Part shown: positions 660 to 20,727 of the stretch, one piece after another
How positions within the stretch are numbered: position 1 is the first letter of the stretch
Layout of the letters: each line of letters starts with the position of its first letter
Source: Elsinoe ampelina
Lineage: Eukaryota
NCBI GenBank assembly: GCA_010093995.1
Contig: ML992501.1
Location: 2,634,790-2,683,452, forward strand
Length of the DNA: 48,663 nucleotides
Direction: 5' to 3'
Program-made: the position numbers and the translations under genes
The notes under the pieces: model-generated
Databases searched by the model: none
What the model saw: the letters and a program-made list of their open reading frames with translations, nothing else
What the model was told of the DNA's origin: nothing

Positions 660-1023
660 TTTTAACTACCCTTACTATAGTATAGTACGCTACGAGGTTA
701 ATAAGTAACTCTTACTCTAAGTTACTATTAGTATCTTTAATCGCTAGTAGGCTAGGAAAGCTTACTATTAACGACATATCTACTACTAGTTTAACCTCGG
801 GCGAACATAGAAGGTCTCTTAGTATAAGGGAAAGACGAGGTAAGCCTAAGTTAGAAGTAAAACTCTTCTATAGGGACTACGCCTACTTAAGGCGCTTCCT
901 TATTTAACTTAAAGCCTTCTTCGCTCTAGAGAGAGATAAGTACACTAACGACATAGTAAAGGTTCTCTACGCTAGAATATACCTTAAAGGCGCTACCTTC
1001 GGGTAGTTTAAGCCTTATATAAG

Positions 1024-1486
1024 TGTTACGAACCGTCTAAATATAGTCTACGCTAGTAGTCTAAGCTAAGCTAAGAACGAGGTAGTTCTACTTCTATAGT
1101 AGTATAGCACTAAGGTAAGAGTTAGAGAAGGTATGTCTTATAGATAATAAAGTATAATTAGATAGTATTATAAAGGCTAGCCTTAGCAATACTAGTGTTC
1201 GCTATCTAGACGAGGTTAACTATAGTACTTATATAAGGTAAGAACTATTCCTGTATATATATATTCTCTATTATATTCTCTATGTGCTCTATGTACTCTA
1301 TAGCGAGAGTCGAGAGTAGTATAGAGTATACGTCCGCTAGTAACCTATATACTCTATAGCTTTAGAGATAGAGCTACTAGAGAAGATAGAGAACTAGGTA
1401 AATATTAGACTAGGTTACGTAATAACCTTAGTAGTTTAATTAGTCCTAACGTCCCTATACTCTAGCTATCCTACTAGTTTGTAACA
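1024..1486 (-). repeat. 3' LTR of A2
   Basis: TGTTACG...GTAACA, followed by the reverse complement of the polypurine tract (TTACTCTCCTTC). Confidence 0.95.
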
Positions 1487-1560
1487 TTACTCTCCTTCTT
1501 TAATTAAGTTGTCCTAATAAGTAAGTATCCTTCCTTATCTTCTTGCGCTATATACTAAAT

Positions 1561-2109
1561 ATGCCTCCTAGTTATCGAAGGTATAGTAAATCTAGTATAT
1601 CTATACGAAAGAACCTCTCGGAGTTTATTAAACTATTTAGAACTAATATACTATAGGCTTACTCTCGTTACAAATCGAAGGGGCTAGACTATAAGGTTTA
1701 TATTTAGTCGGGTATCTATAGCTAGTATGTCGTAAGTAACTACTTAGGTTATAATATTTAAGTAACAAAATTAGAATAGTAGCGTCTCTAGTCTAAGTAT
1801 ATTTATTTACGAAAGGAATTAGTTATAGTAGAGGCTACTAGAAAGAATGCTAAAGAGGCTTATAAAAAGGCAAAAGAGGCTCGTTAGAGAGCTATAGGTA
1901 ATAAGCTTTAGCTCCGTAAGGAGATATAAAAGTTAGAGAATAAGGCGGAGAAAGTAATCTCTCTAGAGGAGACCTGTATTTAAGTCTTAGAGTAGGAGGA
2001 AATACTATTATTAGTAGATCCTATCCTTCTATAGAATTAGTAATTATTTATGCCTAACTCTAATTAGAGTTCTTTATTTAGCAATAATTAAGGTGCTTCT
2101 ATTACCTAA
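1561..2109 (+). pseudogene. Antisense accessory ORF of A2: putative Zn(II)2Cys6-like motif plus coiled coil (RIP-degenerated)
   Basis: ATG at 1561. All in-frame stops are TAA/TAG, which RIP can generate. TAY codons at 1660, 1669, 1690, 1717, 1726 and 1750 have C-x2-C-x6-C-x8-C-x2-C-x7-C spacing, followed by an E/K/R/A-rich helical region. The end coordinate is approximate. Confidence 0.6.
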
Positions 2110-4622
2110 GCGCTCTTCCTTAGACGTTCTTATTTTTATTTAGTGTTAGGAGTACTAGGTCTATCTAGTTAGTTTGCTTAGAATAGGTTCTTAATCTAGT
2201 AATCTAGGATTATTTATAAGGTAAGGTGCTCCTCTAGTTCCTATGTTACTTTACTATACTAATGTCCCTTCTAGTAAATAAGATAGTAGCGTTTTCCCTT
2301 TATAAGTTTATAATGTAAAACCCTTTCGATCTTATACTATAGCTCCTATGTTTCTTTATCTAGTTCGATAGATCTAGGTATAGCATTCTATAGTGCTTTC
2401 TCTAGTAGTAATATATAAAAGACTAGATAGATCCTTATATATCTTAGTAGTTCTAGTTTATATACGTTCTTGTTTTTCTTTTCTAGGATCTTAAAGGGTC
2501 CTAGTTTAGTGTAGTTAAGTTTCTTACTTAGTTGTTTTGTTTTAATATTTTTACTAAGGAGGTAAACCTTCTCTCCCTCCTATAGAATTAGTCCTATAAT
2601 TCTCTTCTAGTTAGTAAACTCTACTATTCTTTATAATATAAATGCTATATCGTAGTATAGTTAGTTATATAGTTTCTTAATATTAGCTACTAGTATATTA
2701 GTATCCTTAGATATTAGCTTAATTCCGAGTATGTTATAGTATAGATCCGAATATATTCTATAGTTTATGTAGAATAGTAAAATTCTATTTGCTAACTTTC
2801 TATTATTAACGGCGAGTTCTATAAGTAGTAGTAGCGTTGCCTATAAGTCTTACTTATAGTTTAGGTAGCATTATAGGTACTATTCTAGTACTTGATTTGC
2901 CTGTTCTATTTGTCCGTCTGTTTATAGATAAAAGGAGGTTAATAGCTTATATTTAACTCCTAGTAGGTCTATAAATAATTGTTAGAATTATAATATAAAT
3001 AACTTATTCCTATTAGTTATTAGGTCTTATAGTACTCTATATTATAAAACAATTATTTAGAGGAAGGCAAAGGCTATATCCTTAGCTATTATTATTGTCT
3101 TATATAGCACGAAGTAGTAATACTTTATAAATCTATCTACTAGGACTAGAATGCTATTATACTTTATACCTATAAGAGGTTCTTCTAATAGTAGTAAGAG
3201 TCCTATAAAGTCTATTATAACTAATTACTATAGTTTATTAGGTAGTGGCAAGGGTTATAGTAGGCTATATAGCTTATGTCGTAAGTACTTAGACTTATAG
3301 CATATATTGTATATAGTAATATACATCTTAATATTATTTTAGAGTTCTTTCTATAGGTAGTTTTATATAATAAGCTTAATAGTCTTATTAATCCCGCTAT
3401 GTCCTACTATTAGATTATTATAGTGTATTTAAATAACTTCTTACTTCTATTCCTATATAAGCTCCTAGGTAAGGCTATATAATTGCTCTACCTTTAGGTG
3501 CTTATAGACTAGAGCGCTATTCTACTACTTTAGTATAGAGGCCTCTATTATCGTTATATTTTTTAAGTAATCTAGTTGTCGGCTAAGAGCGTCTACTCTA
3601 CTGTTCTCTAATCCCTTAATATAGTAGATTTAAAAGTTGTAACTTATAAGTGTTTCTAACTATCGAACCTATCGTCTATTAAGAACCTTAGTTATTATCT
3701 AATATAGAAGGTTCTTATAGTCGGTATAGACTTATACTAGTAAGGTTATTTCTTCTAGGTATACTCTCTATTTATAGAATGCTTCTATAATCGCGAGTAA
3801 TTCTTTATTATATATGTTATAGTTAAGTTTAGGTCTAGTTATTTTTCGTAAGTAGTATATAATTAGGTAGCGTTATTCCTCTACGTCTTTCTACGCTAGA
3901 TATACCTCTATTATAAAGTCTAAGGTATCTGTTTCTAGTAGTGCTTATTAGTCTAGGTCGAAGAGTGCTAGAACAGGTGCTATTATAAGTCTAAGCTTTA
4001 GCTCCTTAAAGGCCTACCTACATTTTTCGTTAAAGATAAAGCTAGTTTTCTTTTTTATAAGGTTAGATATTAGCGTAGCTACTCTTAAGAACCCTTTAAC
4101 AAACTTATAGTAGTAGTTAAAGAACTCTAGTAGCGCTTAAACCTCCTTAACTATTATAGGTTCTAGCTAGTTATTTACTAATTTAATCTTCTTCGGATTA
4201 GGTCTAATACTATTAGTAGATATAACATAGCTTAGAAATTGTATCTTATACTTATAAAACTTACACTTAGAGAGTTTTACTAGTAGGTCTTTCTCTTTTA
4301 GTTTCTATAGCACTTTATAAACATGTCCTACATGTTTATCGTAGGTCTTTAAGAAAATAATAATATTATCTAAATATGCTAAGATAAAGTTATTAAGGTA
4401 TTCTTATAAAGTGTTATTAATTAACTCTTAGAAGGTTATAGAAGCATTAGTTAACCTAAAGGGCATAACGAGGTACTTATATAGACTCTATTACATCCTA
4501 AAAGCTGTTTTTTACTCCTTACTCTCCTTTATTTATACTTAATAATAGGCGTCTCTAATGTTAATTATAGTAAACTATTTAGCTCTAAGTAGTTAGTCTT
4601 AAAGTTTATTAATCCTTAGTAG

Positions 4623-4826
4623 TGATACGAGATAGATACGAACTAGATTCAGTTAGAATGTAGTTTAGATTAGTCACGTGATCTCGGCATCGCGGCCCGG
4701 GCTTCCGGCCGCTCCGCCCTCGATATTACGCGTGCTTTATATACTAGCTTTTCTTCTTCTTCTTCTAAGTCTTAATATCTTAATAAATAGACATAATTAA
4801 CCCCCTTATCTTACTAGTCGTAAACA
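4623..4826 (+). repeat. 5' LTR of B
   Basis: TGATAC...AAACA. Near-identical to 10601-10804 apart from transitions. Confidence 0.95.
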
Positions 4827-5153
4827 CTATATCGAGACTTTAAAACGACTGCGACTAAGCGACGGAGCTATTAAATTATCTAGTTATTCTACTACTTACG
4901 TAACTACTAATAACTACTACTTACGAAGAATTAAAGAATTAAAGAAGAAGCTATTACGACCGTAGTTCCCGCGCACACTATAATAGATCCTCGCTACCGC
5001 TATATAGGTTAATACTACGAACCTCGAAGATATAAGAAGAGGGTAATAAGTCGAGTTATAGACGACTCTTAAAGGAAGTAGGCTACTAGCTAAAATTTTT
5101 AATATTCCCTTTGTTACGCATTGACTTTTTATACCGTTTATTTACGACTAACT

Positions 5154-6515
5154 ATGCCGAGTATAGCTCGTTCTAACCACGGCGAAGACGATTGCTACGT
5201 AAGTAAGATTCCTCTATCCCTCGCCGACAATAACGACGAACTAGTCTAATTAGCCTATTACGACCTTATTCGCCTTAGCGACACTAACCTTAAGAAGAGG
5301 CTACAAGAGACGGACGGTATAACTACTCTACGTAAGGCCTTCGCCTTTATTAAGTCTACCTATAACAAATAGGTTACTACACGTAACTTAGTATATACCG
5401 ATACTCTCGACCTATATAACTAGTTAGACAACGTCCTTATTAAACTAGATATAGCTAATAGTACCGCTAACAATCTTACTACCTAGGCCGCGCGCTACCT
5501 CGCCGACATTAGCAAACTTAAAACCGAACTAGCCTAGCTAAGAGCCGAGATAGGACGCGCTATACTAGCCTCTTTCGCACGCGGCGTTACATTGTTAGAG
5601 AAGATACTAGACCCCGCTATCTTCTCTAGCGGCACCCTAGAACAGTTCGAGGTTTTTAAGCACTAGATAAAGAACAAGATGCGCGCTAATGCTAACTATT
5701 TCTCTACCGAGGCTACTTAGTTTACCTATCTCTATTCGCGTCTCTCTAGCGAAGCGTATACCCTTATTATAGACTCCGCCAGTAACGACACTCTTAACGC
5801 TAAAGCCGCTCTTAGCCTCTTAACCTAGCGCTTTAAGGATCTAAATCGTAAGGCTACTACGTGCGCTTAGTTCGCTAGCCTCTTCTAGCGTAACGTCTCT
5901 TTTAACTCCTTTATTAGCGAATTTAATAAGTACGCCCTCTACGCTAAGATCGCCAAGGACGAATAGCTCTACTAGCTACGCTAGAAGATATCTAACGAGC
6001 TACGCGTTGCCCTTATTAACTTCGACGCTAATAACCTCTCTACCTTTATTACGAAGGCTTATACTACCGACTACAACATTTAGTAGAGCAACCTTATTAC
6101 TAAGCGTACTTAGGCCTTGCGCTCTAGCCTAGCTATAAGCCGCGCCGCTACGGCACTAATCTATGTACCTTATTCTACTTCCGCGCCTACTGCCCTAGCT
6201 ACCTTTTGCTCTATCACTAGAGGAGCCCTATAGCTCTTCCGTCTAGCTCTAACACTTACCTGTTACGTATGTGGCAAGCCTAGCTATATCTCTACTAAGT
6301 GCATAGCTAGCGCCTTAGAGAAGGCCGCTTACGCCGCTATACGTCCCGCACGTATTAGCGCTATAGAAGAGATATAATAGCTCTAGGATTGCTTAGCCGA
6401 ATTAAGCAACTAAGTCGATACTAGTTCGGCTTACGAACTGGATCTAGTTTAGCCTTAGTTCAACCCCGAAATGAATTACGAGTCTACCGACCTATCTAGC
6501 TAGAGAAACAAGTAG
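5154..6515 (+). pseudogene. gag of B
   Basis: ATG at 5154 is in frame with the knuckle TGT TAC GTA TGT GGC AAG CCT (G) (H) ATC TCT ACT (E) TGC at 6261-6302. The frame ends (Q)(G)N(E)* at 6501-6515. Confidence 0.8.
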
Positions 6516-9500
6516 CTAGAGAACAAGTTCTATCCTCTAGTAGAACAAGGGCAATTCGAGATAGATCCGGAGGTATACGGTTATTAAATAGCGTCGTTAG
6601 CTACTACATCCTCGCTATTATAACTTCTATCACTATTTACGACCCCTATAACTACTCTCGCACTATTACACTTTAAGCCTTTATCGACACTAGCGCGCTT
6701 ATCGGCGCTGTAGTTAACTATAACGTTCTCGACAAGCTAAAGAGTTTTAGCTGTCCGGTGGCACTAGCTAGCCCTATTTAGCTTTAGGCTTATAATAGTG
6801 TTCCGATAGAACAAGTCACTTATAGCGTCCCTCTTACTACTACTATTTCTAGTAAGCTAAACAACCTTACTACCTTTCGTATTATAGATATTAGCCGATT
6901 CGACATTATCCTCGGCCTTAGATAGCTTAAGGCTAATAGGGCCACTATCGACTACAAGTATAGCCGAGTTATATACAAAGAAGAGTTTTTACTAACAGTC
7001 GTTAAGTAGGAGCTACCGTAGCTAATTAAAAGGCTAGAATCTAGATCTAAGCCCGGCTTAGATCTAGAAATCTAGCTCGGCAAAGCCACTACTCTAGTTC
7101 GGAACTAGTTCGGTTCTAATCTAACTCGCGAACTAGGTTCTAGCTCGGCCGCTAAGATAGGACGAACTAGACTATATTAACTACTAGCTCTTAGGTCAAA
7201 CTTTAAGCTAAATTAGGGAGAGTTTAAGCTAATCTCTTATAGTACTTAGCTAATATATAAGTTCTTCTACGTACTTGCCTATGTAAGTGACACTAAGTAA
7301 GAAGAGCTAACTATTGCTTTTATTAGCGCCGCTGCCTTTATATTAGCGGCTAAATACTAAAAGAATAAGGTGTTTACAATCTTAGTAAAGAATATTAAGG
7401 ACTACTACCAAATAGCTTCCGAGCTAGAACTAGACTCTATAGTAGTTCTCCTAGAAGAGCTATAGGAGTTTACTAATGTCTTCTCTAAAGAGTAATCTAA
7501 TATACTTCCTCTACATCGGCTAGATTTTAATAATCGGATTACACTTAAGGATAGAGCTAAACTACCACGTACTAAACCCCTTCGCTGCCTATTACTAGAG
7601 GAGCTCGATATAGTAGAGCTATTTATCCGTAAGTACCTTAATAAAGGCTTTATTACGCTAAGCTCGGCTAGCTATTCCTCGCCTATTCTCTTTATTCGCA
7701 AGCCTAGCGGCAGACTTCGCCTTTATGTCGATTACCGCGGCCTTAATAAGGTAACTAAGCGAGACGTCTATCCTCTACCTCTTATCGAAGAAACACTTAC
7801 GCGCGTAAGTAAAGCTAAATAGTTTAGCAAGATTAACATCTGTTAAGCCTTCTACCGCCTCCGTAACTCTATCGATAGTAAAGACCTTACTACGTTCTCT
7901 ATACGTATAAGTAACTTCAAGTGGTTAGTAATGCTATTTAGCCTTACTAACGCCCCCGTAGTGTAGTAGAGGTTTATAAATTACAACTTCGTCGACATGC
8001 TCGAGCGCTTCGTGTTAATCTATCTTAATAACATTCTTATCTATACCGACGGCACTTACTAAGAGCACGCCGAGCATATTAAGCTAGTGCTCTAACGTCT
8101 CTACAATTTAGGCCTAAACGCTAACATTAAGAAGAGCAAGTTCTACCTAACAGAAGTAAAGTATCTTAGTATTATTATTAGTCGAGATAGAGTTAAGATA
8201 GATCTAAAGAAGGTCGAAGCTATACGAGCCTAGAAACAACTAGCCCCTAGTAACACTACTTAGGTAAGAAGCTTTATTAGTTTCTATAGCTACTATCGCT
8301 GCTTTATTAAGGGATTTAGCACTATTACTAAGCTGTTAAACGACCTACTTAAGAAGGACGCTACGCTATAGAACGATAAGTGCACCGCCGCGTTTAACTA
8401 TATAAAGTATACTATTATAAGTGCCCCTATCTTAGCGCACTTCGATTGCTCGAAGTAAGTAGTCGTCGAGACCGACGCCTCCGATACTACTACCGCTAGG
8501 ATTCTATCGTAATATAACAATTCCGACGTCCTCTAGCTCGTTGCCTTCTTTAGTAAATCTATAAGCGAAGCCGAACGTAACTACGTAATCTACGATAAGG
8601 AGCTATTAGCAATCGTCTAAGCCTTTAAGGAATAGGCCCCTAAGCTTATAAGTACTTAATCTAATAAGGCTATTTACGTCCTTACCGACTACTAATCCTT
8701 AATGCATTTTATAAAGACTTAAAAGCTATTACGCCGCTAAGCGCGCTAGGCCCTCTACCTCGCGTAGTTTAACTTTAAGATTATATATAGGCCTAGCGCC
8801 GCTAACGGTAAGGCCGACGCACTTACAAGGAGGAATAGAGACGTACTACGTTCGAAGGAGAACTCTAATCTACGCTAGACACTATTAGCGCACAAAGTGC
8901 TAGATTAGCGCATTATCGACGAACTAAATCTAGGTCGTATCCGAGCTAGATTACTAATCTAGGCTAAACTAAGATCTAGTTTAGCACCTATTTCGCCGCC
9001 TATTTCGGCTCGTAAGCTAGGCACCTATATAGTACTTATCTCCGCTATAGAAGAGCCTTTACTCCTTTTCGACGAAGTAGCTAAAGCTAACTTATAAGAC
9101 TCTAACTTCGAGACAGTTCGCGGCGTCTACTGTATAATAGGAGCCTTCCTAAAGAGGAAATAGTTACTGTCGACTAATGTTACGATCGAGAAGGGGATAC
9201 TATACGCCGCTAGCCGATTAATCGTACCTTTCTCTATAGCCGTAAAAGTCATCTAAGGAGTCTATATATCGAAGAATTACGCACACGGAGGGGCCACTAA
9301 GACAGCCGCTATAATTAAGTCTACTTTCTATATCCCCGGGTGCGATTCTAACGTTAAGAGGTTCGTCGCTAACTATTATAACTATAAGCGCTTAAAGGCT
9401 CGCTATAGCTTACTAGCCGGCTCTCTATCGCTATTGCCTATTCTAGTTAGGCCCTAGCAACATATTACTATAGACTTCGTTACTAGCCTACCCTTAGTAG

Positions 9501-10560
9501 ATAGCTACAACGCGGTGCTATGTGTTGTCGATCGCTTATCTAAGGAACGACACTTAATTCCTTACTTCTAGGGAGAAGAAGGAACCTCTATATTCGAGAC
9601 GGCTAAGCTATTATTCTTCTATGTGTAGAAACTACATAGCCTACTAGATAGTATCACCTCGGATCGCGGCCCTTAGTTCGTTAGCGACGTATAGAAGAGA
9701 CTCTACTAAATCCTAAAGATTACTACTAAACTATCTACCGTAGGGCATCTATAGATAGACGGCTAATTAGAGGTTATAAATCGCAAGTTCGAGCGAGTTA
9801 TCTATTTATACGCTATACGCTTTAGTAATTAGACTCTTGTTCTACTAGTTATAGAGTTCTCCGCTAACGTTAACCTATTAGAGAGTACTAAGCTATTACC
9901 GTTCGAGGTTACTAGAGGATACAAGCTAAGGCTAAGCTTCTAACCCCCTTCTAACGCACTATTAATAAGAGCTAAGCTAAATAAGGTCGACATCTATACA
10001 CTTGCTAAACAACTAGAAGAAGCGCTAGTTATCGCTAAAGCTAACCTCGCTATTACCTAATTACGTATAGTAGAATAAGCTAATAAGTACTACTAGCCGA
10101 TAGAGTTCGAGGTAGGCGATTTAGTGTAGTTATCGACAAAGAACCTCTAGCTATATAGTAATCTAAAGCTACTACTAAAACATATTAGTCTATATAAGAT
10201 TCTCGAGAAGTAGTTACTATTAGTATATAAGCTAGATCTACTAGCTACGCTACGACGAATCTACTCCGTATTCTATGCCGATCTACTTACTAAGCATCTA
10301 AACAACCCTCTACTAGGCTAAGCCTTTAAGGAACTACCTCCGATAGAAGTCGATAGTAAAGAGAAATACAAGGTAGATAACGTAGTTAACGTGTATATAC
10401 TACGTAGTAAACTAGTTACTTATATAAGCTAGAAGAGCTATCCGGAGGATCTTACCTAGTAGCTAATCGACAATCTTAAAGGAGCAGCCGACGTGCTACG
10501 TAACTATCTAGACTCTTATACGGATAAGCTAAGGCCGAAATAGATTAATAAATAATATAT
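6503..10560 (+). pseudogene. pol of B (PR-RT-RH-IN-chromodomain)
   Basis: AFIDT(G)A ~6677; LRL(C)VDYRGLN ~7716; YL(DD)ILI ~8021; VETDASD ~8465; NYVIYDKELLAI ~8579; HIT(M)DFVT(G)LP ~9461; ITSDRG ~9653; chromodomain ~10350-10510. Ends are approximate. Confidence 0.9.
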
Positions 10561-10600
10561 AATAGCGTTTAAGAGTAAACGCGCTTAAGAGAGGAAGTAG

Positions 10601-10804
10601 TAATACGAGATAGATACGAACTAGATTTAGTTAGAATGCAGTTTAGATTGGTCACGTGATCTTAGCATCGCGGCCCGGGCTTCCGGCCGCTCCGCCCTCG
10701 ATATTATACATGCTTTGTATACTAGCTTTTCTTCTTCTTCTTCTAAGTCTTAATATCTTAACGAATAGACGTAATTAACCCCCTTATCTTACTAGTCGTA
10801 AACA
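10601..10804 (+). repeat. 3' LTR of B
   Basis: Direct repeat of 4623-4826, followed by TSD AGTAG. Confidence 0.95.
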
Positions 10805-11663
10805 AGTAGGGGATAGTAATTCTTCCTAGTAAGTGTATTAAGTTTCTAGTAATTAATATATATTTATAATATTCTATTCTTTTTTAGTACAAAAAGCACT
10901 CTATACGTAATAGGTAATTTTAATAGTTATATAAATCCTTTAAGTAAGTACTTGTCGATATAGTTCTTAAGGATATTCTCCTCTTATTTTAATAGTAGTA
11001 TAAGACCTTAATAGTGTATTAGGGATTTACCCTCTTTAAAAGGTATTTTGTAATTCTATAGTTTATGTTAGAGTAAGGCTATAATACCTTTCCTTTCTTT
11101 AAATAAGTCCTTAAAGTCTTTATATTCTAGCGGAAGTACTTAATTACTTACGCTAGCAATAGCCCTAACTATTAGTTATACCTATACTGTCTTTATAGTT
11201 AGTATCCGTAGAGCTAATTATACTCCCTATGTTCTATAATTATACCTAGGGAATTTAAGTATTTCTTTAATCTAGTCTACGTCTAGATTATATTACTAAA
11301 GCTAGTCTATACTAAGTACTATATTATACTATATGTCTACTATATCAATTAATTATTTTTCTATATATATTTTGATTTTAATAGTAACGTTTTATAGTTC
11401 CTAAGTAACTTTTCTATTCTTTCCTATAGGGGTTCTATCTACTATAGTAAGTAGGTAAGGTAACTCCTTCTAATGTTAATAAGGTTTAAGCTAATTAGTA
11501 ACTATAGTAGAGACGTAGCTATAGTTAGCTCCTAAATCTATTATTACTCTTACCTTATTTCCTTATATCTAGACTTCTAGTATAAAGTAGTTTAACGTGT
11601 AGATCTTTATTATACTAAGGCTTTAGCTAGTGTTATTATCTTACCTCGTTAGGTAATAACTAG

Positions 11664-13750
11664 CTAGTTTTTTATTATTATAGCTCCTTAGATAAGTAGC
11701 TAATCCCTTCCTACACATATCTACTATTAGTACTATATCTATTAGGCAAGTCGCGTCTTATTATTATTTAATATAGTAAGGTAGACTTCTAGCGCTTAAG
11801 TTCCTTAGTAACTATAAAGTCTAATAATTCTCTACTAGTTATACTAAGTAGTATCGTATACCTATATTAGTATAACTATTCCTTCTAGGTATAGCTAGGC
11901 ATTAGTATTAAAGACAAAAGCAAGTTACGTAGATTTATCTTATTATATCCTATTCTAGTAGTAGATATATATTATTATATAATTCCTCTATATTCCTATA
12001 AGGTATGCCTTAAGTCGTCTACCTAGTAGTAGTACGTTATTATTATTATTAAATAAGTCTTTATCTATGTTATTATAGTATAGTTATTTAGTATATTCTT
12101 CGTTATATTCCTCTTTATCGCTACTACCCCTAGTATAGTTATAGTTAGTAAGGCTATACTAAGTATATTCTTGTATTTAGCTATAGGGAATAGTACTACC
12201 TATTTCGATTACTAAGAAGTCTATAGTGTATTTAAGACTAATAGCCTCTTCTCTAAGTACATTATATAAGTAGATAGTATAGTACTATTTGCAATCTAGA
12301 TTTGTATATTTCTAGAGTAATATATAATATACCTTTCCTTGTAGTTCGCTATAAAGGCTAAAGGTAAGGCTACTATATTATTATATAGCACTCGCGTCCT
12401 AATACTTTATCTCGATAATCGTATATTAGTAATTGTTACTAACTACCTTCTAGAGTTAGTTAATGTTACTACTAATTATAGAGAGCCTTTCTAGGTTAGG
12501 TTCCTAGTCTAGCTATTTCGTTAGTTGCCTACGCTTAGATAGCTTATATAGAAACTAACTAGATCCCTACTTGTCTAATAAGTAAATATAATAAGAGTTA
12601 TTATAATATACTATCTATAATAGCGTTGCATATTAGCTTTATTGTTTGCTATTAGTTATAGAGATATTAAGCGTAACATCCGGAGAGAATTCTATTGTCT
12701 CTTAAGTCGTTATAGACTTCTTCTATGTTTCCTTACCTACGCTAAAGGTTGTTAGGTCTTCTATAGTAGTGTCGGCCTTTTTTTTTCTACTAGCCTAGTA
12801 ACTATTATATATAATCCATTAGCTAGCGCTCTCTATCGGTAGTCTCTAGCCTAATACCTAGGTCTTTTATACTTAAAATATAGGTTGTCTCGTCTATACT
12901 TCTCTCTCTCTTTTCTACTAAGGAACTTTCCTCTATAGCTATAGCCTTATACCTATAAGAGGTAGCTCTCGTATATAGCGTTAAGTTCTATAGAGTCTCT
13001 ATAGTTTCGGGAGAAATACGTATATCTAGTATTTACCTTATATCCTCTATAACGTTCTATACGTCGTTTATAAAGTCTATTATTAATAGTAATTATAGTG
13101 TCTACTAATTCCTAAAGGCTGTTAGGCGGCTTAGGTATTATCTAGTCTTTAACTAAGTCGCTTAGCCCTTAGTAGAACGCTAAGTGTTTAGTACTATTGT
13201 CCTAGTCTAGGTGTATTACAAGTTATTAGAACTAGAAATAGTATTAGGCTATAGACCTATATTGTTGTAGTTATTAGATCTTTGTCGCGGCGATATGTTC
13301 TTTATTAGATACGTTAAAGACTTACTTAATCTTTAACTAAAAGATGTTAAAGCTCTTAAAGATAGCCTTTATATCTAGGCTTAGTTATCTATCTAGGTAG
13401 CTACTTATATAAGGCTTAAACTACCTAAAGGTAGCGCCTTTAAGGTGTATTCCGGCATAGAGGACTTTTACTATGTTATTAGCGTACTTATCTCTCTCTA
13501 GAGCGAAGAAGGCTTTAAGTTAAACAAGGAAGCGCCTTAAGTAGGCGCGGTCCCTATAGAAGAGTTCTACCTCTAACTTAGGCTTACCTTGTTCTTCCTC
13601 TATACTAAGAGACCTTCGGTGTTTGCCTAAGAATAAACTAGTAGTAGATATGTTATTAATAGTAAGCTTTCCTAGCTTACTAGCGATCGAAGATGCTAAT
13701 AGTAACTTAGAGCAAGAGTTACTTATTAACCTTGTAGCGTGCTATACTAT
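11664..13750 (-). pseudogene. gag of A2
   Basis: Reverse complement of A1 gag. Ends AAA AAC TAG at 11672-11664. Confidence 0.8.
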
Positions 13751-13767
13751 AGTAAGAGTAGTTAAAA

Positions 13768-14230
13768 TATTACGAACTATTTAAATATAGTCTACGCTAG
13801 TAGTCTAAGCTAAGCTAAGAACGAGGTAGTTCTACTTCTATAGTAGTATAGCACTAAGATAAGAGTTGGAGAAGGTATGTCTTATAGATAATAAAGTACA
13901 ATTAGATAGTATTATAAAGGCTAGCCTTAGCAATACTAGTGTTTACTATCTAGATAAGGTTAACTATAGTACTTATATAAGGTAAGGACTATTCCTATAT
14001 ATATATATTCTCTATTGCGTTCTCTATATGCTCTATATGCTCTATAGCGAGAGTCGGGGGCAGTATAGAGTATATGTCCGCTAGTAACCTATATGCTCTA
14101 TAGCTTTAGGGGTAGAGCCGCTAGAGAAGATAGAGAACCGGGTAAATGTCGAGCCGGGTCACGTGATAACCTTAGCAGTTTAATTGGTCCTAATGTCCCT
14201 ACGCTCTAGCTGTCCTACTAGTTCGTAACA
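13768..14230 (-). repeat. 5' LTR of A2 (least RIP-damaged copy of LTR A)
   Basis: 463 bp. Retains CCGGGTAA (14138-14145), GTCACGTGA (14158-14166) and ATTGG (14183-14187). Confidence 0.95.
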
Positions 14231-15972
14231 ATAAGTAGCTACCTAGATAGGTAACTAAACTTAGATATAAAGGCTATCTTTAAGAGCTTTAGTATCTTCT
14301 AGGCGAAGATTAAGTAGGTCTTTAACGTATCTAATAAAGAATATATCGCTATAACAAAGATCTAACAACTATAATAATATAGGTCTATAGCCTAGTACTA
14401 TTCCTAGTTCTAATAACTCGTAATACACCTAGACTAGGATAATAGCGCTAAACACTTAGTATTCTACTAAGGGCTAAGCGACTTAGTTAAAGACTAGATA
14501 ATACCTAAGCTACCTAATAGCCTTTAGAAATTAGTAGATAATATAATTACTATTAATAATAGACTTTATAAACGACATATAGAACGTTATAGAGGATATA
14601 AGGTAAATACTAGATATATACGTTTCTCTCGAAACTATAGAGACTCTATAGAACTTAATACTATACGCGAAGGCTACCTCTTATAGGTATAAGGCTAAGG
14701 CTATAGAGGGAAGTTCCTTAGTAGAAAAGAGAGAGAGAAGTATAGATAAGACAATTTATATTTTAAGTATAAAAGACCTAAGTATCGGGCTAGGAACTAC
14801 TAATAAGAGGCGCTAGCTAATAGATTATATATAATAGTTACTAGGCTAGTAGAAAAAAAGGCCAATACTACTATAGAAGACCTAACGATCTTTAGTATAG
14901 GTAAGGAAATACAAAAGAAGTCTACGACAACTCGAGAGGTAATAGAACTCTCTTTAGATATTACGCTTAATATCTCTATAACTAATAGTAAATAACAAAG
15001 CTAATACATAACGCTATTATAGATAGTATATTATAATAACTCTTGTTATATTTACTTATTAGACAAGTAGGAATTTAGTTAGTTTCTATATAAGCTATCT
15101 AAGTATAGATAACTAATAAAATAGCTAGACTAGAGACCCGACCTAGAAGAGCTCTCTATAATTAGTAATAACATTAACTAACTCTAGAGAGTAGTTAGCG
15201 ACAATTACTAATATACAATTATTAAGATAAAGTATTAGGACGCAAGTGCTATATAATAATATAGTAGTCTTACCTTTAGCCCTTATAGTAAACTATAGAG
15301 AAAGGTATATTATATGTTACTCTAGAAATATATAAATCTAAATTACAAATAGTACTATACTATCTACTTATATAATATACTTAGAGAGAAAGCTATTAGT
15401 CTTAAATATACTATAGACTTCTTAGTAATTAAGATAGGTAGTACTATTCCCTATAGCTAAGTATAAGAGTGTACTTAGTATAGCCTTACTAACTATAACT
15501 ATACTAGGGGTAGTAGCGACAAAGAGAAATATAATAAAGAATACACCGAATAACTATACTATAATAACATAGATAAAGACTTATCTAATAACAACAACAA
15601 CAATAATAACGTACTACTACTAGGCAGACAACTTAAGGCATATCTTATAGAGATATAGAGAAATTATATAATAATATATACCTACTACTAGAATAGGACA
15701 TAATAAGATAAATTTACATAACTTACCTTTGTCTTTAATACTAACGCCTAGCTACACCTAGAAGGAATAGTTATACTAATATAGGTATATAATACTACTT
15801 AGTATAACTAGTAGAGAATTATTAGACTTTATAGTTACTAAGGAACTTAAGCGCTAGAAGTCTACCTTACTATATTAAACAATAATAAGACACGACTTGC
15901 CTAATAGATATAGTACTAATAGTAGATACGTATAGGAAGGGATTAGCTACTTATCTAAGGAGCTATAATGAT

Positions 15973-18900
15973 AAAAAACTAACTAGTTATTACCTAATAA
16001 GGTAAGATAATAACACTAGCTAAAGCCTTAGTATAATAGAGATCTATATATTAAATTACTTTATACTAGAAGTCTAGATATAAGGAAATAAGGTAAGAGC
16101 AATAATAGATTTAAGAGCTAACTATAGCTACGTCTCTATAACAGTTACTAATTAGCTTAAACCTTATTAATACTATAAGGAGTTACCTTACCTACTTACT
16201 ATAGTAGATAGAACCCCTATAGGAAAGAATAGGAAAGTTACTTAGGAACTATAAAACGTTATAATTAGAATTAAAACACATATAGAAAAACGATTAATTA
16301 ATATAGTAGATATATAGTACAATATAGTACTTAGTATAGACTAGCTTTAGTAATATAATCTAGATATAGACTAGATTAAAGAAACACTTGAATTCCCTAG
16401 GTATAATTATAAGATGTAGAAAGTATAATTAGCTCTATAGATACTAACTATAAGAATAGTATAGGTACGACTAATAGTTAGGGCTATCGCTAGCGTAAGT
16501 AACTAAGTACTTCTACTAGAATATAAAGACTTTAAGGACTTATTTAAAGAAAGGGAAAGTATTATAGCCTTACTCTAATATAAACTATAGAATTACAAAA
16601 TACCTTTTAAAGAGAGTAAATCCCTAATATACTATTAAGGTCTTATACTACTATTAAAATAGAAGAAGAATGTCCTTAAGAACTATATCGACAAGTACTT
16701 ACTTAAAGGATTTATATAACTATTAAAATTACCTATTACGTATAGAGTACTTTTTACACCTAAGAAGGATAGAACGTTATAAATATATATTAATTACTAG
16801 AAACTTAATACACTTACTAGGAAGAATCGCTATCTCTTACTAAGGATTAATAAACTTTAAGACTAACTACTTAGAGCTAAATAGTTTACTATAATTAATA
16901 TTAGAGATGCCTATTATTAAGTATAGATAAAGGAGAGTAAGGAGTAGAAAACAGCTTTTAGGATATAATAGAGTTTATATAAATACCTTATTATACCCTT
17001 TAGGTTAACTAATACTCCTATAACCTTCTAAGAGTTAATTAATAATACTCTATAAGAATACCTTAATAACTTTATCTTAGCATATTTAGACAATATTATT
17101 ATTTTTTTAAAGACGTATAACAAATATATAAGACATATTTATAAAGTACTATAGAAACTAAAAGAGAAAGACCTACTAGTAAAACTCTCTAAGTATAAGT
17201 TCTATAAGTATAAGATACAATTTCTAGGCTATGTTATATCTACTAATAGTATTAGACCTAATCCGAAGAAGATTAAGTTAGTAAATAACTAGCTAGAACC
17301 TACTATAGTTAAGGAGGTATAAGTACTACTAGGATTCTTTAACTACTATTATAAGTTTGTTAAAGGATTCTCTAAGGTAGCTACGCTAATATCTAACTTT
17401 ACAAAGAAAGAAACTAGCTTTATCTTTAATAAAAAATGTAGGTAGGCCTTTAAGGAGCTAAAGCTTAGACTTATAATAGCACCTGTTCTAGTACTCTTTA
17501 ACTTAGACTAATAAGCACTACTAGAAATAAATGCCTTAGACTTTATAATAGAAGTATATCTAGCGTAGAAGGACGTAGAAGAACGACGCTACTTAATTAT
17601 ATACTACTTACGAAAAATGACCGGACCTAAACTTAACTACAACATATATAATAAGGAATTACTTACGATAGTAGAGGCATTCTATAAGTAGAGAGTATAC
17701 CTAGAGGGAATAACCTTACTAGTATAAGTCTATACCGACTATAAGAACCTTCTATATTAGACAACTACTAAGGTTCTTAATAGACAATAGGTTCGATAGT
17801 TAGAAACACTTATAAGCTATAACTTCTAGATCTACTATATTAAGGGATTAGAGAATAGCGAAGTAGACGCTCTTAGCTACTAGCTAGATTACTTAAAAAA
17901 CATAACAATAATAGAGGCCTCTATACTAAAGTAGTAGAATAGCGCTCTAGTCTATAAGTACCTAAAGGTAAAGCAGTTATATAGCCTTACCTAGGAGCTT
18001 ATATAAGAATAGAAACAAGAAGTTATTTAAATATACTATAATAACCTAATAGTAGAACATAGTAGGATTAATAAGACTATTAAGCTTATTATATAAAACT
18101 ATCTATAAAAAGGACTCTAAAACGACGTTAAGACGTATATTACTATATACGATACATACTATAAGTCTAAGCACTTACGACATAAGCTATATAGCCTACT
18201 ATAACCCTTACTACTACCTAATAAACTATAGTAATTAGTTACGATAGACTTTATAGGACTCTTACTACTATTAGAAGAGCCTCTTATAGGTATAAAGTAT
18301 AATAGTATTCTAGTCCTAGTAGATAGGTTTACGAAGTATTACTACTTTATACTATATAAGACAATAGTAACTACCGAGGATATAGTCTTTATCTTTCTCC
18401 GAATAATTGTTTTATAACATAGAGTACTACGAGACCTAATAACTAATAGAGACAAGTTATTTATATTACAATTCTAGTAATTATTTATAGACCTACTAGG
18501 AGTTAAACATAAACTATTAACCTTCTTTTATCTATAAACGGACGGACAAACAGAATAGGCAAATTAAGTACTAGAATAGTACCTATAATACTACCTAAAC
18601 TATAAGCAAGACTTATAGGTAACGCTACTACTACTTATAGAACTTGCTATTAATAATAGAAAATTAGTAAATAGAGTTTTACTATTCTACGTAAACTATA
18701 GAATATACCTAGATCTATACTATAACACACTCGGAATTAAGCTAATATTTAAGGATATAAATATACTAGTAGCTAATATTAAGAAGCTATATAACTAGCT
18801 ATACTACGATATAGCATTTATATTATAAAGGATAGTAGAGTTTACTAACTACAAAAGAATTATAGGACTAATTCTAAGAGAGAGAGAGAAGATTTATCTC

Positions 18901-19371
18901 CTTAGTAAGAATATTAAGACTAAAAGACTAAGTAAGAAACTAGACTATACTAAGCTAGGACCTTTTAAAATCCTAGAAAAGAAAAACAAGAAAGTATATA
19001 AACTAGAGCTACTAAGACATATAAGGATCTATCTAGTCTTTTATATATTACTACTAGAGAAAGTACTATAGAATACTATACCTAGACCTATCGAACTAGA
19101 TAAAGAAACATAGGAGCTATAGTATAAGATAGAAAGAGTTTTATATTATAAACTTATAAAAGAGAAACACTACTATCTTATTTACTAGAAGGGATATTAG
19201 TATAGCGAAGTAATATAGAAACTAGAGAAGTACTTTACCTTATAAGTAATTCTAGATTACTAGATTAAGAACCTATCCTAAGTAAACTAACTAGATAGAC
19301 CTAGTACTCTTAATACTAAACAAAAACAAGAATACCTAAGGAAGATTACTTAAGTAATAGAAGTACCTTAA
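15973..19371 (+). pseudogene. pol of A1 (PR-RT-RH-IN-chromodomain)
   Basis: A(M)ID(SG)AN ~16099; (C)I(D)Y(R)KLN ~16786; AYLD(D)II ~17080; E(TD)A(S)D ~17524; NY(D)I(HD)KELL ~17635; T(M)DFIG 18241; TDGQTE 18538; chromodomain Y(E)IERVL..YLI(HW)KGY..(TWEP)E at 19123-19227. The end is approximate. Confidence 0.9.
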
Positions 19372-19898
19372 TCGTTGCTAAATAAAGAACTCTAATCGGA
19401 GTTAGGCATAAATAATTACTAGTCCTATAGAAGGACGGGATCTACTAACGATAGTATTTTCTCCTACTCTAAGACTTAAATATAGGTCTCCTCTAGAGAG
19501 ATTACTTTCTCTACCTTATTCTCTAATTTCTATATCTCTTTATATAGGTAAAGCTTATTACCTATAGCTCTTTAACGAGCCTCTTTTACCTTTTTATAAG
19601 CCTCTTTAGCTTCCTTTCTAGTAGCCTTAGCTATAACTAATTCCTTTCGTAAATAAATATACTTAGACTAGAGATACTACTATTCTAACTTTGTTACCTA
19701 AATATTATAACTTAAGTAGTTACTTACAACATACTAGCTATAGATACCCGACCGAATATAGACCTTATAGTCTAGCCCCTTCGATTTATAATAAGAATAA
19801 GCCTATAGCATGTTAGTTCTAAATAGTTTAATAAACTCTAAGAGATTCTTTCGTGCAGATATACTAGATTTACTATGCCTTTAACGACTAGGAGGTAT
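19350..19898 (-). pseudogene. Antisense accessory ORF of A1 (copy of 1561-2109)
   Basis: Colinear reverse complement with no indel. It keeps ancestral codons lost in A2 (CGT, CAT, GCA, ATG, CGG). The putative Cys motif is at 19707-19799. Confidence 0.6.
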
Positions 19899-19972
19899 AT
19901 TTAGTACATAGCGCGTAAAGATAAAAAAGAATACTTACTCGTTAGAACAACTTAATTAAAGGAGAAAAGTAA

Positions 19973-20435
19973 TGTTATAAACTAGTAGGATAGCTAGAGC
20001 ATAGAGACGTTAGGACTAATTAAGCTACTAAGGTTATTATATAACCTAGCCTAATATTTACCTAGTTCTCTATCTTCTCTAGTAGCTCTACCTCTAAAAC
20101 TATAGAGTATATAGGTTACTAGTAGACGTATACTTTATATTACTCCCGACTCTCGCTATAGAGTATATAGAGCATATAGAGAATACAATAGAGAATATAT
20201 ATATATAGGAATAGTCCTTACCTTATATAAGTACTATAGTTAACCTCGTCTAGATAGCGAACACTAGTATTACTAAGGCTAGCCTTTATAATACTATCTA
20301 ATTGTACTTTATTATCTATAAGACATATCTTCTCTAACTCTTACCTTAGTACTATACTACTATAGAAGTAGAACTACCTCGTTCTTAGCTTAGCTTAGAC
20401 TACTAGTGTAGACTATATTTAGACGGTTTATGACA
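19973..20435 (+). repeat. 3' LTR of A1
   Basis: TGTTATAA...TGACA, followed by TSD ATTAC. Confidence 0.95.
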
Positions 20436-20512: not shown

Positions 20513-20715
20513 TATTAAGAATATAGCTCTCTCTAGATAATTAGGCTATAAAGTTATATAACTTTAAGTTATGTAATGCTAAGGCCTAGGGATTTATAGC
20601 TGTTCTTTCTTCTAGTAGATAGACTTCTTTTAATTAATTAACTCGTCTATTACCTAACTAGTGTGCAATTAGTTCTATATAATATTCTACTCCTAAACGT
20701 GCCTTCTACTTAACA
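20513..20715 (+). repeat. 5' LTR of C
   Basis: T(G>A)TT...TAACA. Direct repeat of 25623-25825. Confidence 0.93.
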
Positions 20716-20727
20716 GGTTATAAGCCC
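20716..20727 (+). other. Primer-binding site of C, Ty5/copia half-tRNAiMet type
   Basis: GGTTATAAGCCC, the RIP form of GGTTATGAGCCC, which is complementary to the initiator tRNA-Met anticodon stem-loop. It lies immediately after the LTR. Confidence 0.8.

Follow-up and report, generated by a model that had tools for sequence, protein, structure and literature searches.

Both copies of a Gypsy element in a 48,663-nucleotide stretch of Elsinoe ampelina DNA (contig ML992501.1; hereafter the window) carry the remains of a third gene, which lies antisense to gag-pol between pol and the 3′ LTR, as it does in related elements. Intact relatives show that this antisense accessory gene (aORF) is real and forms the third gene in a lineage of Ascomycete chromoviruses, i.e. 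of Ty3/Gypsy elements with a chromodomain. We consider it probable that the gene, destroyed by RIP in the window, encodes a dimeric, zinc-dependent DNA-binding regulator of the element's own LTR. An earlier sequence-only reading of the window had pointed to the frame and to a Zn(II)2Cys6-like product, and that interpretation is supported by the evidence presented here. Its functional part, a regulator read inward from the 3′ LTR that would trans-activate LTRs, counter silencing or restrain copy number, is still a proposal.

Two RIP-inactivated copies of an antisense frame

The sequence-only reading had described a gap-free frame running antisense to gag-pol in both copies of the element. Translation and alignment confirmed its coordinates and frame (Table 1); the alignment of the two copies has no internal gap, and the observation of the antisense frame is real. 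The ATG of copy A at 1561 is situated 74 nt inward of the LTR end at 1486, where the terminus GTTTGTAACA is found, in agreement with the distance of about 75 bp originally given. Codon pairs reported as traces of an ancestral reading are present as described (ATG/ATA at codon 1, TAT/CGT at codon 5, TAT/CAT at codon 8, ATA/GCA at codon 15 and TAG/CGG at codon 49). Among contig pieces from DNA runs, a loose end at 1572 reveals a further, less mutated copy that reads CGT..AGA CAT AGT, fitting R..RHS. All stops, 18 in copy A and 17 in copy B, are TAA or TAG as stated earlier, a feature that is uninformative because RIP (TpG to TpA) erases TGA stops too. Equally accurate was the statement that TGY has been lost at all six presumed Cys codons, none of which has survived in either copy: at 1660, 1669, 1690, 1717, 1726 and 1750, copy B has TAT throughout, and the codons of copy A are either TAC or TAT. 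Copy A thus has TAY (Tyr) at codons 34, 37, 44, 53, 56 and 64, where the relatives have invariant Cys, and TAT at codon 47, where they have invariant His. Both aORF copies in the window are dead, relics without present function.

Table 1. Coordinates of the aORF copies and of the surrounding element in the window
Feature	Position	Strand	Remarks
3′ LTR, copy A	1024..1486	-	463 nt; terminal inverted repeat TGTTACAAAC...GTTTGTAACA
TATA run and RIP-degraded TTCTCTAT / TGCTCTAT / TACTCTAT repeats in U3	1254..1319 (TATA 1254-1264)	-	by eye
Polypurine tract adjoining the 3′ LTR, copy A	1487..1501	-	AAAGAAGGAGAGTAA on the minus strand; intact relatives laid out alike
RIP-inactivated aORF, Gypsy copy A	1561..2109	+	183 codons, 18 TAA/TAG stops
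Six-Cys domain remnant, copy A	1660..1752	+	from comparison with relatives
Long helix / coiled-coil remnant, copy A	1774..2030	+	alignable to helix 75-159 in the model of the intact relative P0003
Chromodomain-like pol end, copy A	2184..2333	-	by eye, after the SH3_Tf2-1 match
pol, copy A, stops read as X	2394..4619	-	RVT_1, RNase H, Integrase_H2C2 (weak), SH3_Tf2-1
Same aORF in Gypsy copy B	19350..19898	-	183 codons, 17 TAA/TAG stops, start codon now ATA
3′ LTR, copy B	19973..20435	+	coordinates transferred from copy A

Both copies are RIP-mutated repeats, recognisable by transition divergence and an excess of TpA. Transitions account for 306 of the 329 differences between copies A and B, and the indices TpA/ApT (1.88 and 1.95) and (CpA+TpG)/(ApC+GpT) (0.24 and 0.18) are in line with RIP by the customary thresholds. 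C-to-T or G-to-A transitions altered all six Cys codons, the His codon and the Trp codon, and in copy B also the start codon. Among 32 columns with at least 90% conservation in 72 intact relatives, 30 codons of each window copy either equal a codon of the conserved residue or are reachable from one by C>T/G>A changes alone, compared with 17% for random codons taken from RIPed DNA. A model of the RIP rate based on independence of the two copies fitted poorly, shared TpA sites being far above its prediction, and no probability was drawn from it because this independence fails. Two DNA runs of one sample contained 2,586 and 1,872 contig pieces with at least 80% likeness to the element, and the element family is therefore highly repeated. 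A>G changes at 1661, 1670, 1691, 1718, 1727 or 1751 did not occur among the 40 of 154 variants listed.

RIPed DNA is rich in TAY and in TAA/TAG, and a frame in it might look restorable merely by chance. The window itself illustrates the point: the pattern Y-x2-Y-x6-Y-x5-12-Y-x2-Y-x6-8-Y matches nine times, at seven distinct places, in the 46,950 RIPed-frame codons of the window, 8.9% of which encode Tyr, and TGA stops have been erased as well. The six-Tyr pattern by itself is within chance expectation, and the aORF stands above chance only because of the independent evidence from intact relatives.

Intact relatives of the aORF protein

A profile built from the two X-read window copies retrieved ten proteins at E≤1e-3 among 1.84 billion, the best at 1.2e-16. 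The matches are intact proteins of 175–211 aa that are collinear over residues 10–148. In the reciprocal search, a profile of seven intact foreign proteins matched only the two aORF loci in the six-frame translation of the window, with E values of 1.1e-24 over 1576–2007 (copy A) and 3.7e-23 over 19452–19886 (copy B); the third-best match had an E value of 1.9. As intact homologues are matched in both directions, the identity of the aORF is settled beyond the six-Tyr pattern. An origin of the frame by chance has practically no probability left: with E values from 1e-16 to 1e-24 in both directions, about 150 collinear residues and Cys at the six positions, it is refuted by both profile searches together with the test on conserved columns described above.

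The family profile collected 41 database proteins and 61 metagenome loci, 38 of which contain a full-length intact ORF, corresponding to 35 distinct proteins. Neither of the outcomes that would speak against the sequence-only reading was found: the intact relatives have Cys, not Tyr, His or Arg, at the critical codons, and their frames are open in these 38 of 61 loci. In the ESM Atlas, the family is represented by clusters of 140, 122 and 62 members from Ascomycota. Only two of the 41 database matches carry a species name, and all that are named at all are 'hypothetical' or misnamed. The family is without a Pfam entry, and a Pfam search with the broken window copies gave nothing at E≤10. Thus, a conserved protein family is routinely missed by gene sets because it resides inside repeats.

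A third gene of the chromovirus lineage

Placement of the frame between the chromodomain end of pol and the 3′ LTR, as originally proposed for the window, recurs in the chromodomain Gypsy elements of the relatives. A search for homologues antisense at the 3′ end of elements, which the sequence-only reading had called for, yielded by profile the 61 metagenome loci, in which the aORF is arranged tail-to-tail with a chromovirus pol. The aORF of the relatives starts 45–113 nt inward of the 3′ LTR, and the 3′ ends of aORF and pol range from about 10 nt apart to an overlap of about 140 nt. Close to the match end, at no more than about 200 nt, a minus-strand open frame of at least 250 aa begins in 20 of the 33 longer loci examined. 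All twelve such ORFs tested, from nine loci, encode chromovirus pol (nine, all with Chromo) or gag (three). The nine pol ORFs combine RT, RNase H and integrase with a C-terminal chromodomain, in each case with Chromo following SH3_Tf2-1. In the pol of the window, Chromo gave no Pfam match at E≤0.001, the chromodomain being recognisable by eye. All five relative loci that were read share with the window a layout of polypurine tract, LTR, TATA and PBS-like site. Poly(A) ends were not found on any of the 61 metagenome contigs.

The sequence-only reading had further suggested measuring dN/dS in relatives. Among the 28 usable of 595 pairs, dN/dS of the aORF had a median of 0.146 and a range of 0.03–0.56 and never reached 1, indicative of purifying selection. 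In the pair L014/L015, values were 0.03 for the aORF, 0.05 for pol and 0.13 for gag. Purifying selection on the aORF is as strong as on pol, and across copies and relatives the frame is conserved much as gag-pol is.

Retroelements can transduce sequences, as passages of PMC7264820 point out, and the aORF might be a transduced host gene fragment, or an unrelated element nested in one Gypsy family, instead of an integral gene of the lineage. We regard this as very improbable, however. Position and orientation are constant across divergent elements with dS up to saturation, dS of the aORF tracks that of pol, and our searches found no longer (fused or cellular) relative of the protein, although the latter is weak as evidence. 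The constant placement and the selection together show the aORF to be a genuine third gene of the Ascomycete chromovirus lineage.

Protein architecture and the Zn2Cys6 question

The intact aORF protein comprises about 150–215 aa. Its basic N-terminus (SSTxRRK) and a short helix precede an invariant domain with six Cys and one His that includes the motif CKVHVRSGxC. The cluster is followed by a helix of about 85 residues and a strongly acidic tail with the conserved aromatic motif LSPxTW...FW. Over the last 55 residues, the tail has a net charge of −5 to −15 in 33 of the 34 proteins listed and contains three to seven aromatic residues in 31 of them. Acidic tails with aromatic residues are more typical of activation domains.

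Since the relatives have Cys at all six positions occupied by Tyr in the window, the six-Cys cluster postulated after reversal of RIP was predicted correctly almost residue by residue; the position left open in the original 'KV.I' turned out to be His. The arrangement C-x2-C-x6-C-x8-C-x2-C-x6-8-C, i.e. the Zn2Cys6 spacing C-x2-C-x6-C-x5-12-C-x2-C-x6-8-C with a middle loop of eight residues, fits 71 of 81 family sequences. The other ten are L052, which keeps all six Cys around a 2-residue insert, seven sequences with Tyr or another residue in place of a Cys, and two N-terminal truncations.

The earlier designation as Zn(II)2Cys6-like holds as a likeness, based on the six-Cys spacing and the fold neighbours described below, whereas matches to PF00172 (Zn_clus) stay below the threshold: in the profile search proposed earlier, three of seven full proteins scored 9.7–12.1 bits against a gathering cut-off of 21. 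When domain pieces were used, 11 of 35 matched PF00172 at E≤1 (best 1.1e-3), and other sub-threshold Pfam families matched more of the pieces (DUF5651 21, FpoO 18). A profile search against PDB sequences gave nothing significant; an L37Ae zinc ribbon (0.13), LAC9 (0.52) and LEU3 (6.4) came nearest. Sequence methods thus do not assign the domain to Zn_clus, and the CxxC...CxxC core could also be a one-zinc ribbon with extra Cys and His.

AF2 models of the protein (pLDDT 76.7 for the whole protein, 85.3 for the domain) place a short helix at each of the two CxxC pairs and a further helix over residues 75–159. In Foldseek comparisons with the PDB, Zn2Cys6 proteins filled the first 14 ranks for the full model and, for the domain model, 17 of the 18 listed rows. 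Hap1, Pho7, Gal4, Leu3, Put3, Ppr1, Cep3 and LAC9 were among these neighbours. The fold matches agree with the proposed kind of fold but are statistically weak: the best Foldseek E values were 0.16 and 0.42, with none at or below 1e-3 for the full and domain models, and VIA superposed the cluster alone at 1.9–2.2 Å over 33–35 residues with Z scores of only 2.2–3.7. An unbiased wide VIA fold search returned long helices only.

The homodimer model reached an ipSAE of 0.48, compared with 0.00 for the best control. The ipSAE mark is reached by 21 of 30 solved one-chain pairs and none of 23 single chains, and among eukaryotes by 17 of 29 pairs and none of 30 single chains. Between the dimer runs, at least 75% of contacts coincided, with a partner pLDDT of 75 or more. 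Predicted contacts are antiparallel, pairing residue i with about residue 218−i, so the two clusters would be about 100 Å apart in the dimer. Where the sequence-only reading had placed a coiled coil behind the cluster, the relatives have an 85-residue helix, whose predicted antiparallel pairing is unlike that of Gal4.

This pairing, together with the sequence searches, gives weight to the possibility that the gene is real and conserved and its product not a transcription factor. The Cys/His domain might instead bind nucleic acid or a host protein in nuclear import of the pre-integration complex, tethering or target-site choice, RNA packaging or chaperoning, or the blocking of a host silencing factor, and the long antiparallel helix might act as spacer or scaffold. 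Sequence membership in Zn_clus is missing, the antiparallel dimer is at odds with the Gal4 mode, and the invariant His in the loop hints at a different metal chemistry. In passages of PMC7264820, antisense aORFs of plants are likewise proposed to encode accessory proteins, e.g. for nuclear import. Nevertheless, the PDB fold neighbours are almost exclusively DNA-binding Zn2Cys6 domains, an activator would show the same order of basic N-terminus, cluster, dimer helix and acidic aromatic tail, and repeat arrays are found in U3 beside the gene. We therefore hold a function outside transcription to be a serious alternative, though not a likely one.

Repeats in the LTR as a candidate target

Of 29 distinct LTR-side regions, 27 contain three or more hexamers of the type GCTC[TA]G or GCTCTC; the motif was derived from five of the 29 loci, and only 24 are independent. 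The hexamers are clustered directly upstream of TATATA, whereas their density elsewhere in the loci predicts 0–1.2 occurrences. The degraded U3 repeats of the window (Table 1) are likely the counterpart of these GCTC(T/A)G arrays. The hexamer repeats do not contain CGG, and inspection by eye of five LTRs revealed no conserved arrangement of CGG half-site pairs. A host factor could equally bind the GCTC(T/A)G repeats.

If the preferred reading of the aORF as a gene for a regulator is correct, the protein would be made from an antisense RNA initiated within or next to the 3′ LTR and would act as a dimeric, zinc-dependent and sequence-specific DNA-binding factor on the LTR of its own element. The likeliest target would be the GCTC(T/A)G array directly upstream of the U3 TATA box, and the likeliest action would be activation through the acidic tail. 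A more specific version, which we put forward tentatively and consider possible rather than likely, is that this Ascomycete chromovirus lineage carries a minimal Gal4-like antisense activator, transcribed from the 3′ LTR, which as a dimer on the GCTC(T/A)G array switches on both itself and gag-pol. In this circuit, the array separates the antisense gene from the sense TATA box. The transposon would then carry a positive-feedback switch of its own, comparable to Tax, Tas or HBZ of retroviruses, from which hosts might also acquire new zinc-cluster regulators.

The opposite effect on the LTR seems rather improbable to us. A protein bound there might repress the element or control its copy number, or the antisense RNA might feed RNA silencing by pairing with the 3′ end of gag-pol. 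As aORF and pol are convergent and share as much as about 140 nt, both RNAs would indeed pair, and dsRNA-mediated control by antisense aORF transcripts is discussed in passages of PMC7264820. However, a role of the RNA alone leaves the aORF dN/dS values of 0.03–0.18 and the invariant Cys and His residues unexplained, the acidic aromatic tail fits activation better, and a self-limiting gene is harder to keep in a selfish element, although examples exist.

Comparison with known systems

An antisense gene in this position of an element is already in print. It is brtn, the antisense gene that Boty-like Gypsy elements carry in Botrytis cinerea and Sclerotinia. Passages of PMC8365987, PMC7264820, PMC4227169 and PMC5987419 cite Zhao et al. 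(2011, Virology 417:248) for it, and brtn is depicted in Fig. S1 of the supplement of PMC8365987. According to these passages, brtn resembles the aORF in being an extra gene of a fungal chromodomain Gypsy element, antisense to gag-pol and located between pol and the 3′ LTR. The two are likened by position alone, with no Botrytis or Sclerotinia protein among the 41 matches of the aORF profile. At a guess, the name 'brtn-106' may point to a product shorter than the aORF protein.

Antisense extra ORFs near the 3′ LTR have been known in plant Gypsy elements for decades and in Boty since 2011. According to passages of PMC7264820, the plant aORFs share position and orientation with the gene described here, are conserved family-wide, and some of their products are nuclear. 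They belong to another kingdom, none is reported in these passages with a zinc-cluster domain, and the likeness is one of description, not of sequence. For any such aORF, the passages of this 2020 review state no clear protein similarity and no described function. Our literature search turned up no report of a zinc-cluster gene carried by an LTR retrotransposon. The words 'antisense' and 'zinc' are absent from 'LTR retrotransposons in fungi' (PMC3248453), and no such extra gene appears in its passages on additional or unusual features. A transposon-encoded antisense regulator of the Gal4 type thus seems to be previously undescribed.

With Gal4-type factors such as Gal4, Hap1, Ppr1, Put3, Leu3, Pho7 and Cep3, the aORF protein has in common the six-Cys spacing, an acidic C-terminal region and, as judged from the models, the helices at the CxxC pairs, a linker and a long helix predicted to dimerise. 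In contrast to them, it falls below the PF00172 cut-off, has an invariant VHVRSG with His as the loop between Cys3 and Cys4, and measures only about 190 aa without the fungal-specific middle homology domain of Pfam. Furthermore, its predicted coiled coil is antiparallel, and it is encoded by a retrotransposon.

HBZ of HTLV-1 is a small dimeric bZIP protein with an activation-like region, encoded in antisense and transcribed from the 3′ LTR. By analogy, the aORF protein would likewise be a small dimeric regulator of DNA-binding type whose gene occupies the minus strand of a retroelement beside the 3′ LTR, and might be the counterpart of retroviral trans-activators in general and of HBZ in particular. 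HBZ is a bZIP protein of a vertebrate retrovirus and has no Cys cluster, and no homology is claimed. Passages of PMC7264820 also mention that the 3′ LTR of HTLV contains an antisense promoter. The aORF family combines a recognisable architecture of six-Cys cluster, dimer helix and acidic tail with dozens of intact natural members. Together with a candidate target array in the element's own LTR, this architecture makes the role of antisense aORFs accessible to ordinary assays.

An antisense gene inactivated by RIP

The LTR elements of the window are nested at three levels (197-20435), as revealed by repeat analysis and reading of the element ends. The two chromodomain Gypsy elements, copy A and copy B, show 329 differences over 3,602 aligned positions. 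Since 306 of these are transitions and the TpA/ApT ratios of the copies are 1.88 and 1.95, they carry the signature of repeat-induced point mutation (RIP). The first 27 kb of the window are AT-rich (25-34% GC; exception: 5-10 kb at 39-43%), and the following 19 kb carry genes and have 49-61% GC; the AT-rich transposon block gives way to normal genes near 27.0 kb and a second time near 46.0 kb. The permease gene of the GC-rich part, which matches a protein named from Elsinoe ampelina, very probably assigns the window to this Dothideomycete. The third element, with about 40% GC, is devoid of ORFs of at least 100 aa. The repeat pair past copy B probably represents another RIPed LTR element, and the aORF-family profile had no match in this unit.

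Features of the window
Feature	Position	Strand	Remarks
Gypsy copy B	197-1023 and 14231-20435	gag-pol +	first part: 5' LTR and 364 nt; split by copy A
Gypsy copy A	1024-14230	-	opposite to copy B; inserted into copy B
Copy A 3' LTR	1024-1486
Copy A 5' LTR	13768-14230
aORF, copy A	1561-2109	+
Third LTR element	about 4618-10804		interrupts copy A
LTRs of third element (209 nt)	4618-4826, 10596-10804
aORF, copy B	19350-19898	-
Direct repeat pair (203 nt)	20513-25825		95% identical, 5.1 kb apart, immediately past copy B
Amino-acid/methionine permease gene	28227-29786	-	aligned part 100% identical to Elsinoe ampelina protein

Between pol and the 3' LTR, both copies share one frame antisense to gag-pol, the accessory gene aORF, and alignment confirmed that the copies have no indels relative to each other in it. 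Its first codon lies 74 nt inside the LTR edge, a little past the polypurine tract, the stops (18 in copy A, 17 in copy B) are all TAA or TAG, and the codon pairs from which ancestral residues had been proposed are present. Two arguments of the sequence-only reading carry little weight. TGA stops are erased by RIP itself, and the pattern of six tyrosines, taken as former cysteines, has 9 matches at 7 distinct places among 46,950 RIPed codons of the window, Tyr making up 8.9% of codons in RIPed frames. A Pfam scan of the broken aORF translations gave no match.

The gene was recognized by profile searches in both directions. Both copies, read with X at the stops and aligned, retrieved 10 proteins at E<=1e-3 from 1.84 billion representative proteins, the best of which (E 1.2e-16 and 1.6e-11; 175-211 aa) are collinear with frame residues 10-148. 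Seven of the ten are intact; their Cys occupy all six columns that are Tyr in the window, and His stands at the column of window Tyr 47. A reverse profile built from these seven, and thus independent of the window, matched the six-frame translation at 1576-2007 (+; E 1.1e-24) and 19452-19886 (-; E 3.7e-23), and nothing in the rest of the window scored better than E 1.9. Across 32 columns at least 90% conserved in 72 intact relatives, copy A retains the conserved residue at 18 and copy B at 17; at 30 of the 32, the window codon either matches a codon for that residue or could derive from one through C>T/G>A changes alone, compared with 17% for random codons of RIPed DNA. The aORF is thus a gene killed by RIP; together with the two-way profile matches, this rules out a chance pattern. 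The observation is thus confirmed, and the two window copies are dead relics.

A conserved protein family of chromodomain Gypsy elements

In a collection of 5.8 billion sequences, the family profile matched 41 proteins. Almost all lack a name or are labeled 'hypothetical', two bear wrong names ('AcrA' efflux subunit and 'chromosome segregation ATPase'), and two alone come with a species name, a Bathelium mastoideum MAG and Elasticomyces elasticus, both Dothideomycetes. Clusters of 140, 122 and 62 members were found in the ESM Atlas, with Ascomycota as commonest phylum. JGI and GenBank metagenome contigs contained relatives at 61 loci, 38 of them with a full-length intact ORF, giving 35 distinct proteins. 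The spacing C-x2-C-x6-C-x8-C-x2-C-x6-8-C fits 71 of 81 family sequences; the ten misfits comprise one two-residue insert, seven replacements by Tyr or other residues, several of which look RIPed, and two truncations. Six database 'proteins' (P0007, P0011, P0012, P0036, P0048 and P0049) have Tyr for some or all Cys and are gene calls on RIP-damaged copies in other fungi. The consensus SSTxRRxxLxxFIxxFGxxM(P/V)xxCxxCxxxxxxC(K/R)VH(V/I/L)RSGxCxxC...C(D/N)(V/I)(R/K)(V/I)TxxE(W/F)xRL is followed by a long helix, which bears AEEAIxVEE towards its end, and then by an acidic tail containing L(A/S)LSPxTW...(D/E)xFW. The family is real and conserved, and apparently unannotated.

The expectation that homologues sit antisense at the 3' end of Gypsy-type elements was borne out. 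Open frames were listed for the 33 longer of the 61 metagenome loci, and 20 of these 33 have a minus-strand frame spanning 250 aa or more that starts within about 200 nt of the match end. Twelve such frames from nine loci were scanned with Pfam and proved to be nine pol (protease, RVT_1, RNase H, integrase, SH3_Tf2-1, Chromo) and three gag; the pol of the window, with its stops translated as X, still yields scores for RVT_1, RNase H and SH3_Tf2-1. The aORF and pol are convergent; their ends are separated by about 10 nt at one extreme and overlap by about 140 nt at the other. Five element-length contigs, read through the assembly junction, all share the order seen in the window. Along the gag-pol strand, the aORF start is followed after 45-113 nt by the polypurine tract, an LTR that opens with TGT(T/A)A, a TATATA box, the LTR end ...ACA and a PBS-like site CTTTGA(A/C)... 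The sequence after the 5' LTR, CTTTGAACACCC and variants (L005, L015, L019, L030, L033), is conserved among divergent elements; its counterpart at window 660-671 is TTTTAACTACCC.

Selection was estimated by the Nei-Gojobori method from the 28 of 595 pairs with 0.03<dS<1.5. In these non-independent pairs, the median aORF dN/dS was 0.146 (range 0.03-0.56, none reaching 1). For loci L014/L015, dN/dS was 0.012/0.417 in aORF, 0.017/0.345 in pol and 0.079/0.609 in gag; for L030/L035, 0.117/1.07 in aORF and 0.208/1.79 in pol. Constraint on the aORF equals that on pol, and the two genes diverge in parallel. The family is an integral part of a chromovirus lineage.

A metagenome contig of 115 kb harbors a 2.4-kb unit (L007 7551-9964; also L006) of normal GC with AT-rich flanks, bounded by 330-nt direct repeats 95% identical and holding only a gag fragment (weak Retrotrans_gag) and an intact aORF. 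It is either an internally deleted element retaining the aORF or a step towards domestication.

Predicted structure

The AF2 model of the family protein P0003 (seven sequences; pLDDT 76.7) has one helix at 17-31, a short helix at each CxxC pair, a long helix at 75-159 (pLDDT >90 over most of it) and a disordered tail; residues 14-112 modeled with 35 sequences reached pLDDT 85.3. The structural reading was right in that intact relatives have the six Cys followed by a long helix. The description as a Zn(II)2Cys6-like cluster is supported by Cys spacing and agrees with statistically weak fold matches, with the Pfam score below cut-off. With neither the whole nor the domain model did Foldseek find a PDB match at E<=1e-3. 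Zn2Cys6 proteins take ranks 1-14 for the whole model (Hap1 best, at E 0.16) and make up 17 of 18 among the matches listed for the domain model (best E 0.42), including Pho7, Ppr1, Gal4, Leu3, Hap1, Put3, Cep3 and LAC9. VIA re-alignment gave Z 2.2-3.7 and, for the cluster alone, 1.9-2.2 A over 33-35 residues; an unbiased VIA search returned long helices alone. Zn_clus scored 9.7-12.1 bits on family proteins (cut-off 21), with 11 of 35 members at E<=1, and a profile search of PDB sequences listed seven, none significant, among them a ribosomal zinc ribbon (E 0.13), LAC9 (0.52) and LEU3 (6.4). As sequence methods do not connect the domain with Zn_clus, it is described here as Zn2Cys6-like without being assigned to that family.

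A two-copy model of P0003 residues 36-160 passed with ipSAE 0.48 (best control 0.00), a mark reached by 21/30 solved same-chain pairs and 0/23 single chains (eukaryotes 17/29 and 0/30); runs showed at least 75% contact agreement and pLDDT of at least 75. The predicted contacts are antiparallel and centered on residue 109, in contrast to Gal4. In the antiparallel model (residues 73-141), the Cys clusters would sit at the two far ends of paired helices spanning about 100 A. The last 55 residues have a net charge of -5 to -15 in 33 of 34 tails listed.

A putative regulator of the LTR

Taken in order, the parts would match a small activator, with a basic N-terminus, a head for metal binding and DNA reading, a dimerizing helix and an acidic aromatic tail. 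With 45-113 nt between start codon and LTR, a promoter would have to reside in the U3 of the 3' LTR or the short spacer. In the part of U3 that runs from the LTR edge to the TATATA box, GCTC(T/A)G or GCTCTC hexamers occur at least three and up to 11 times in 27 of 29 distinct loci, compared with 0-1.2 expected from their density elsewhere in the same loci; the motif was picked from five loci, leaving 24 independent. These arrays lie just upstream of the palindromic TATATA box (L005, L015, L019, L030, L033 and 24 other loci), and CACGTG boxes are also present in several of the LTRs. The window LTR has a RIP-degraded counterpart of the array at 1264-1319, beside a TATA run.

The array thus has the antisense gene on one side and the sense promoter on the other, two units that point away from each other. 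It contains no CGG, and a host factor could be its binder. We prefer the reading that the aORF protein binds the array and might thereby regulate both the antisense gene and the sense promoter. Regulation of the LTR by this protein, of either sign, is a reasoned hypothesis.

Comparison with known antisense genes

The closest functional analogy to the aORF would be HBZ of HTLV-1. We found no report of a zinc-cluster gene in an LTR retrotransposon in the literature searched. An antisense promoter in the HTLV 3' LTR is mentioned in a 2020 review (PMC7264820), the excerpts of which state that for none of the antisense genes of LTR elements has a clear similarity to other proteins been described. 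An antisense gene at the same position, brtn, is carried by Boty-like elements of Botrytis and Sclerotinia (Zhao et al. 2011, as cited in excerpts of PMC8365987, PMC7264820, PMC4227169 and PMC5987419). No protein of these genera is among the 41 family-profile matches, which counts weakly against homology; the likeness of brtn to the aORF is one of position and orientation. In plants, such antisense genes are carried by the Gypsy elements Grande, RIRE2, Retand and PvRetro13, according to the same excerpts of PMC7264820.
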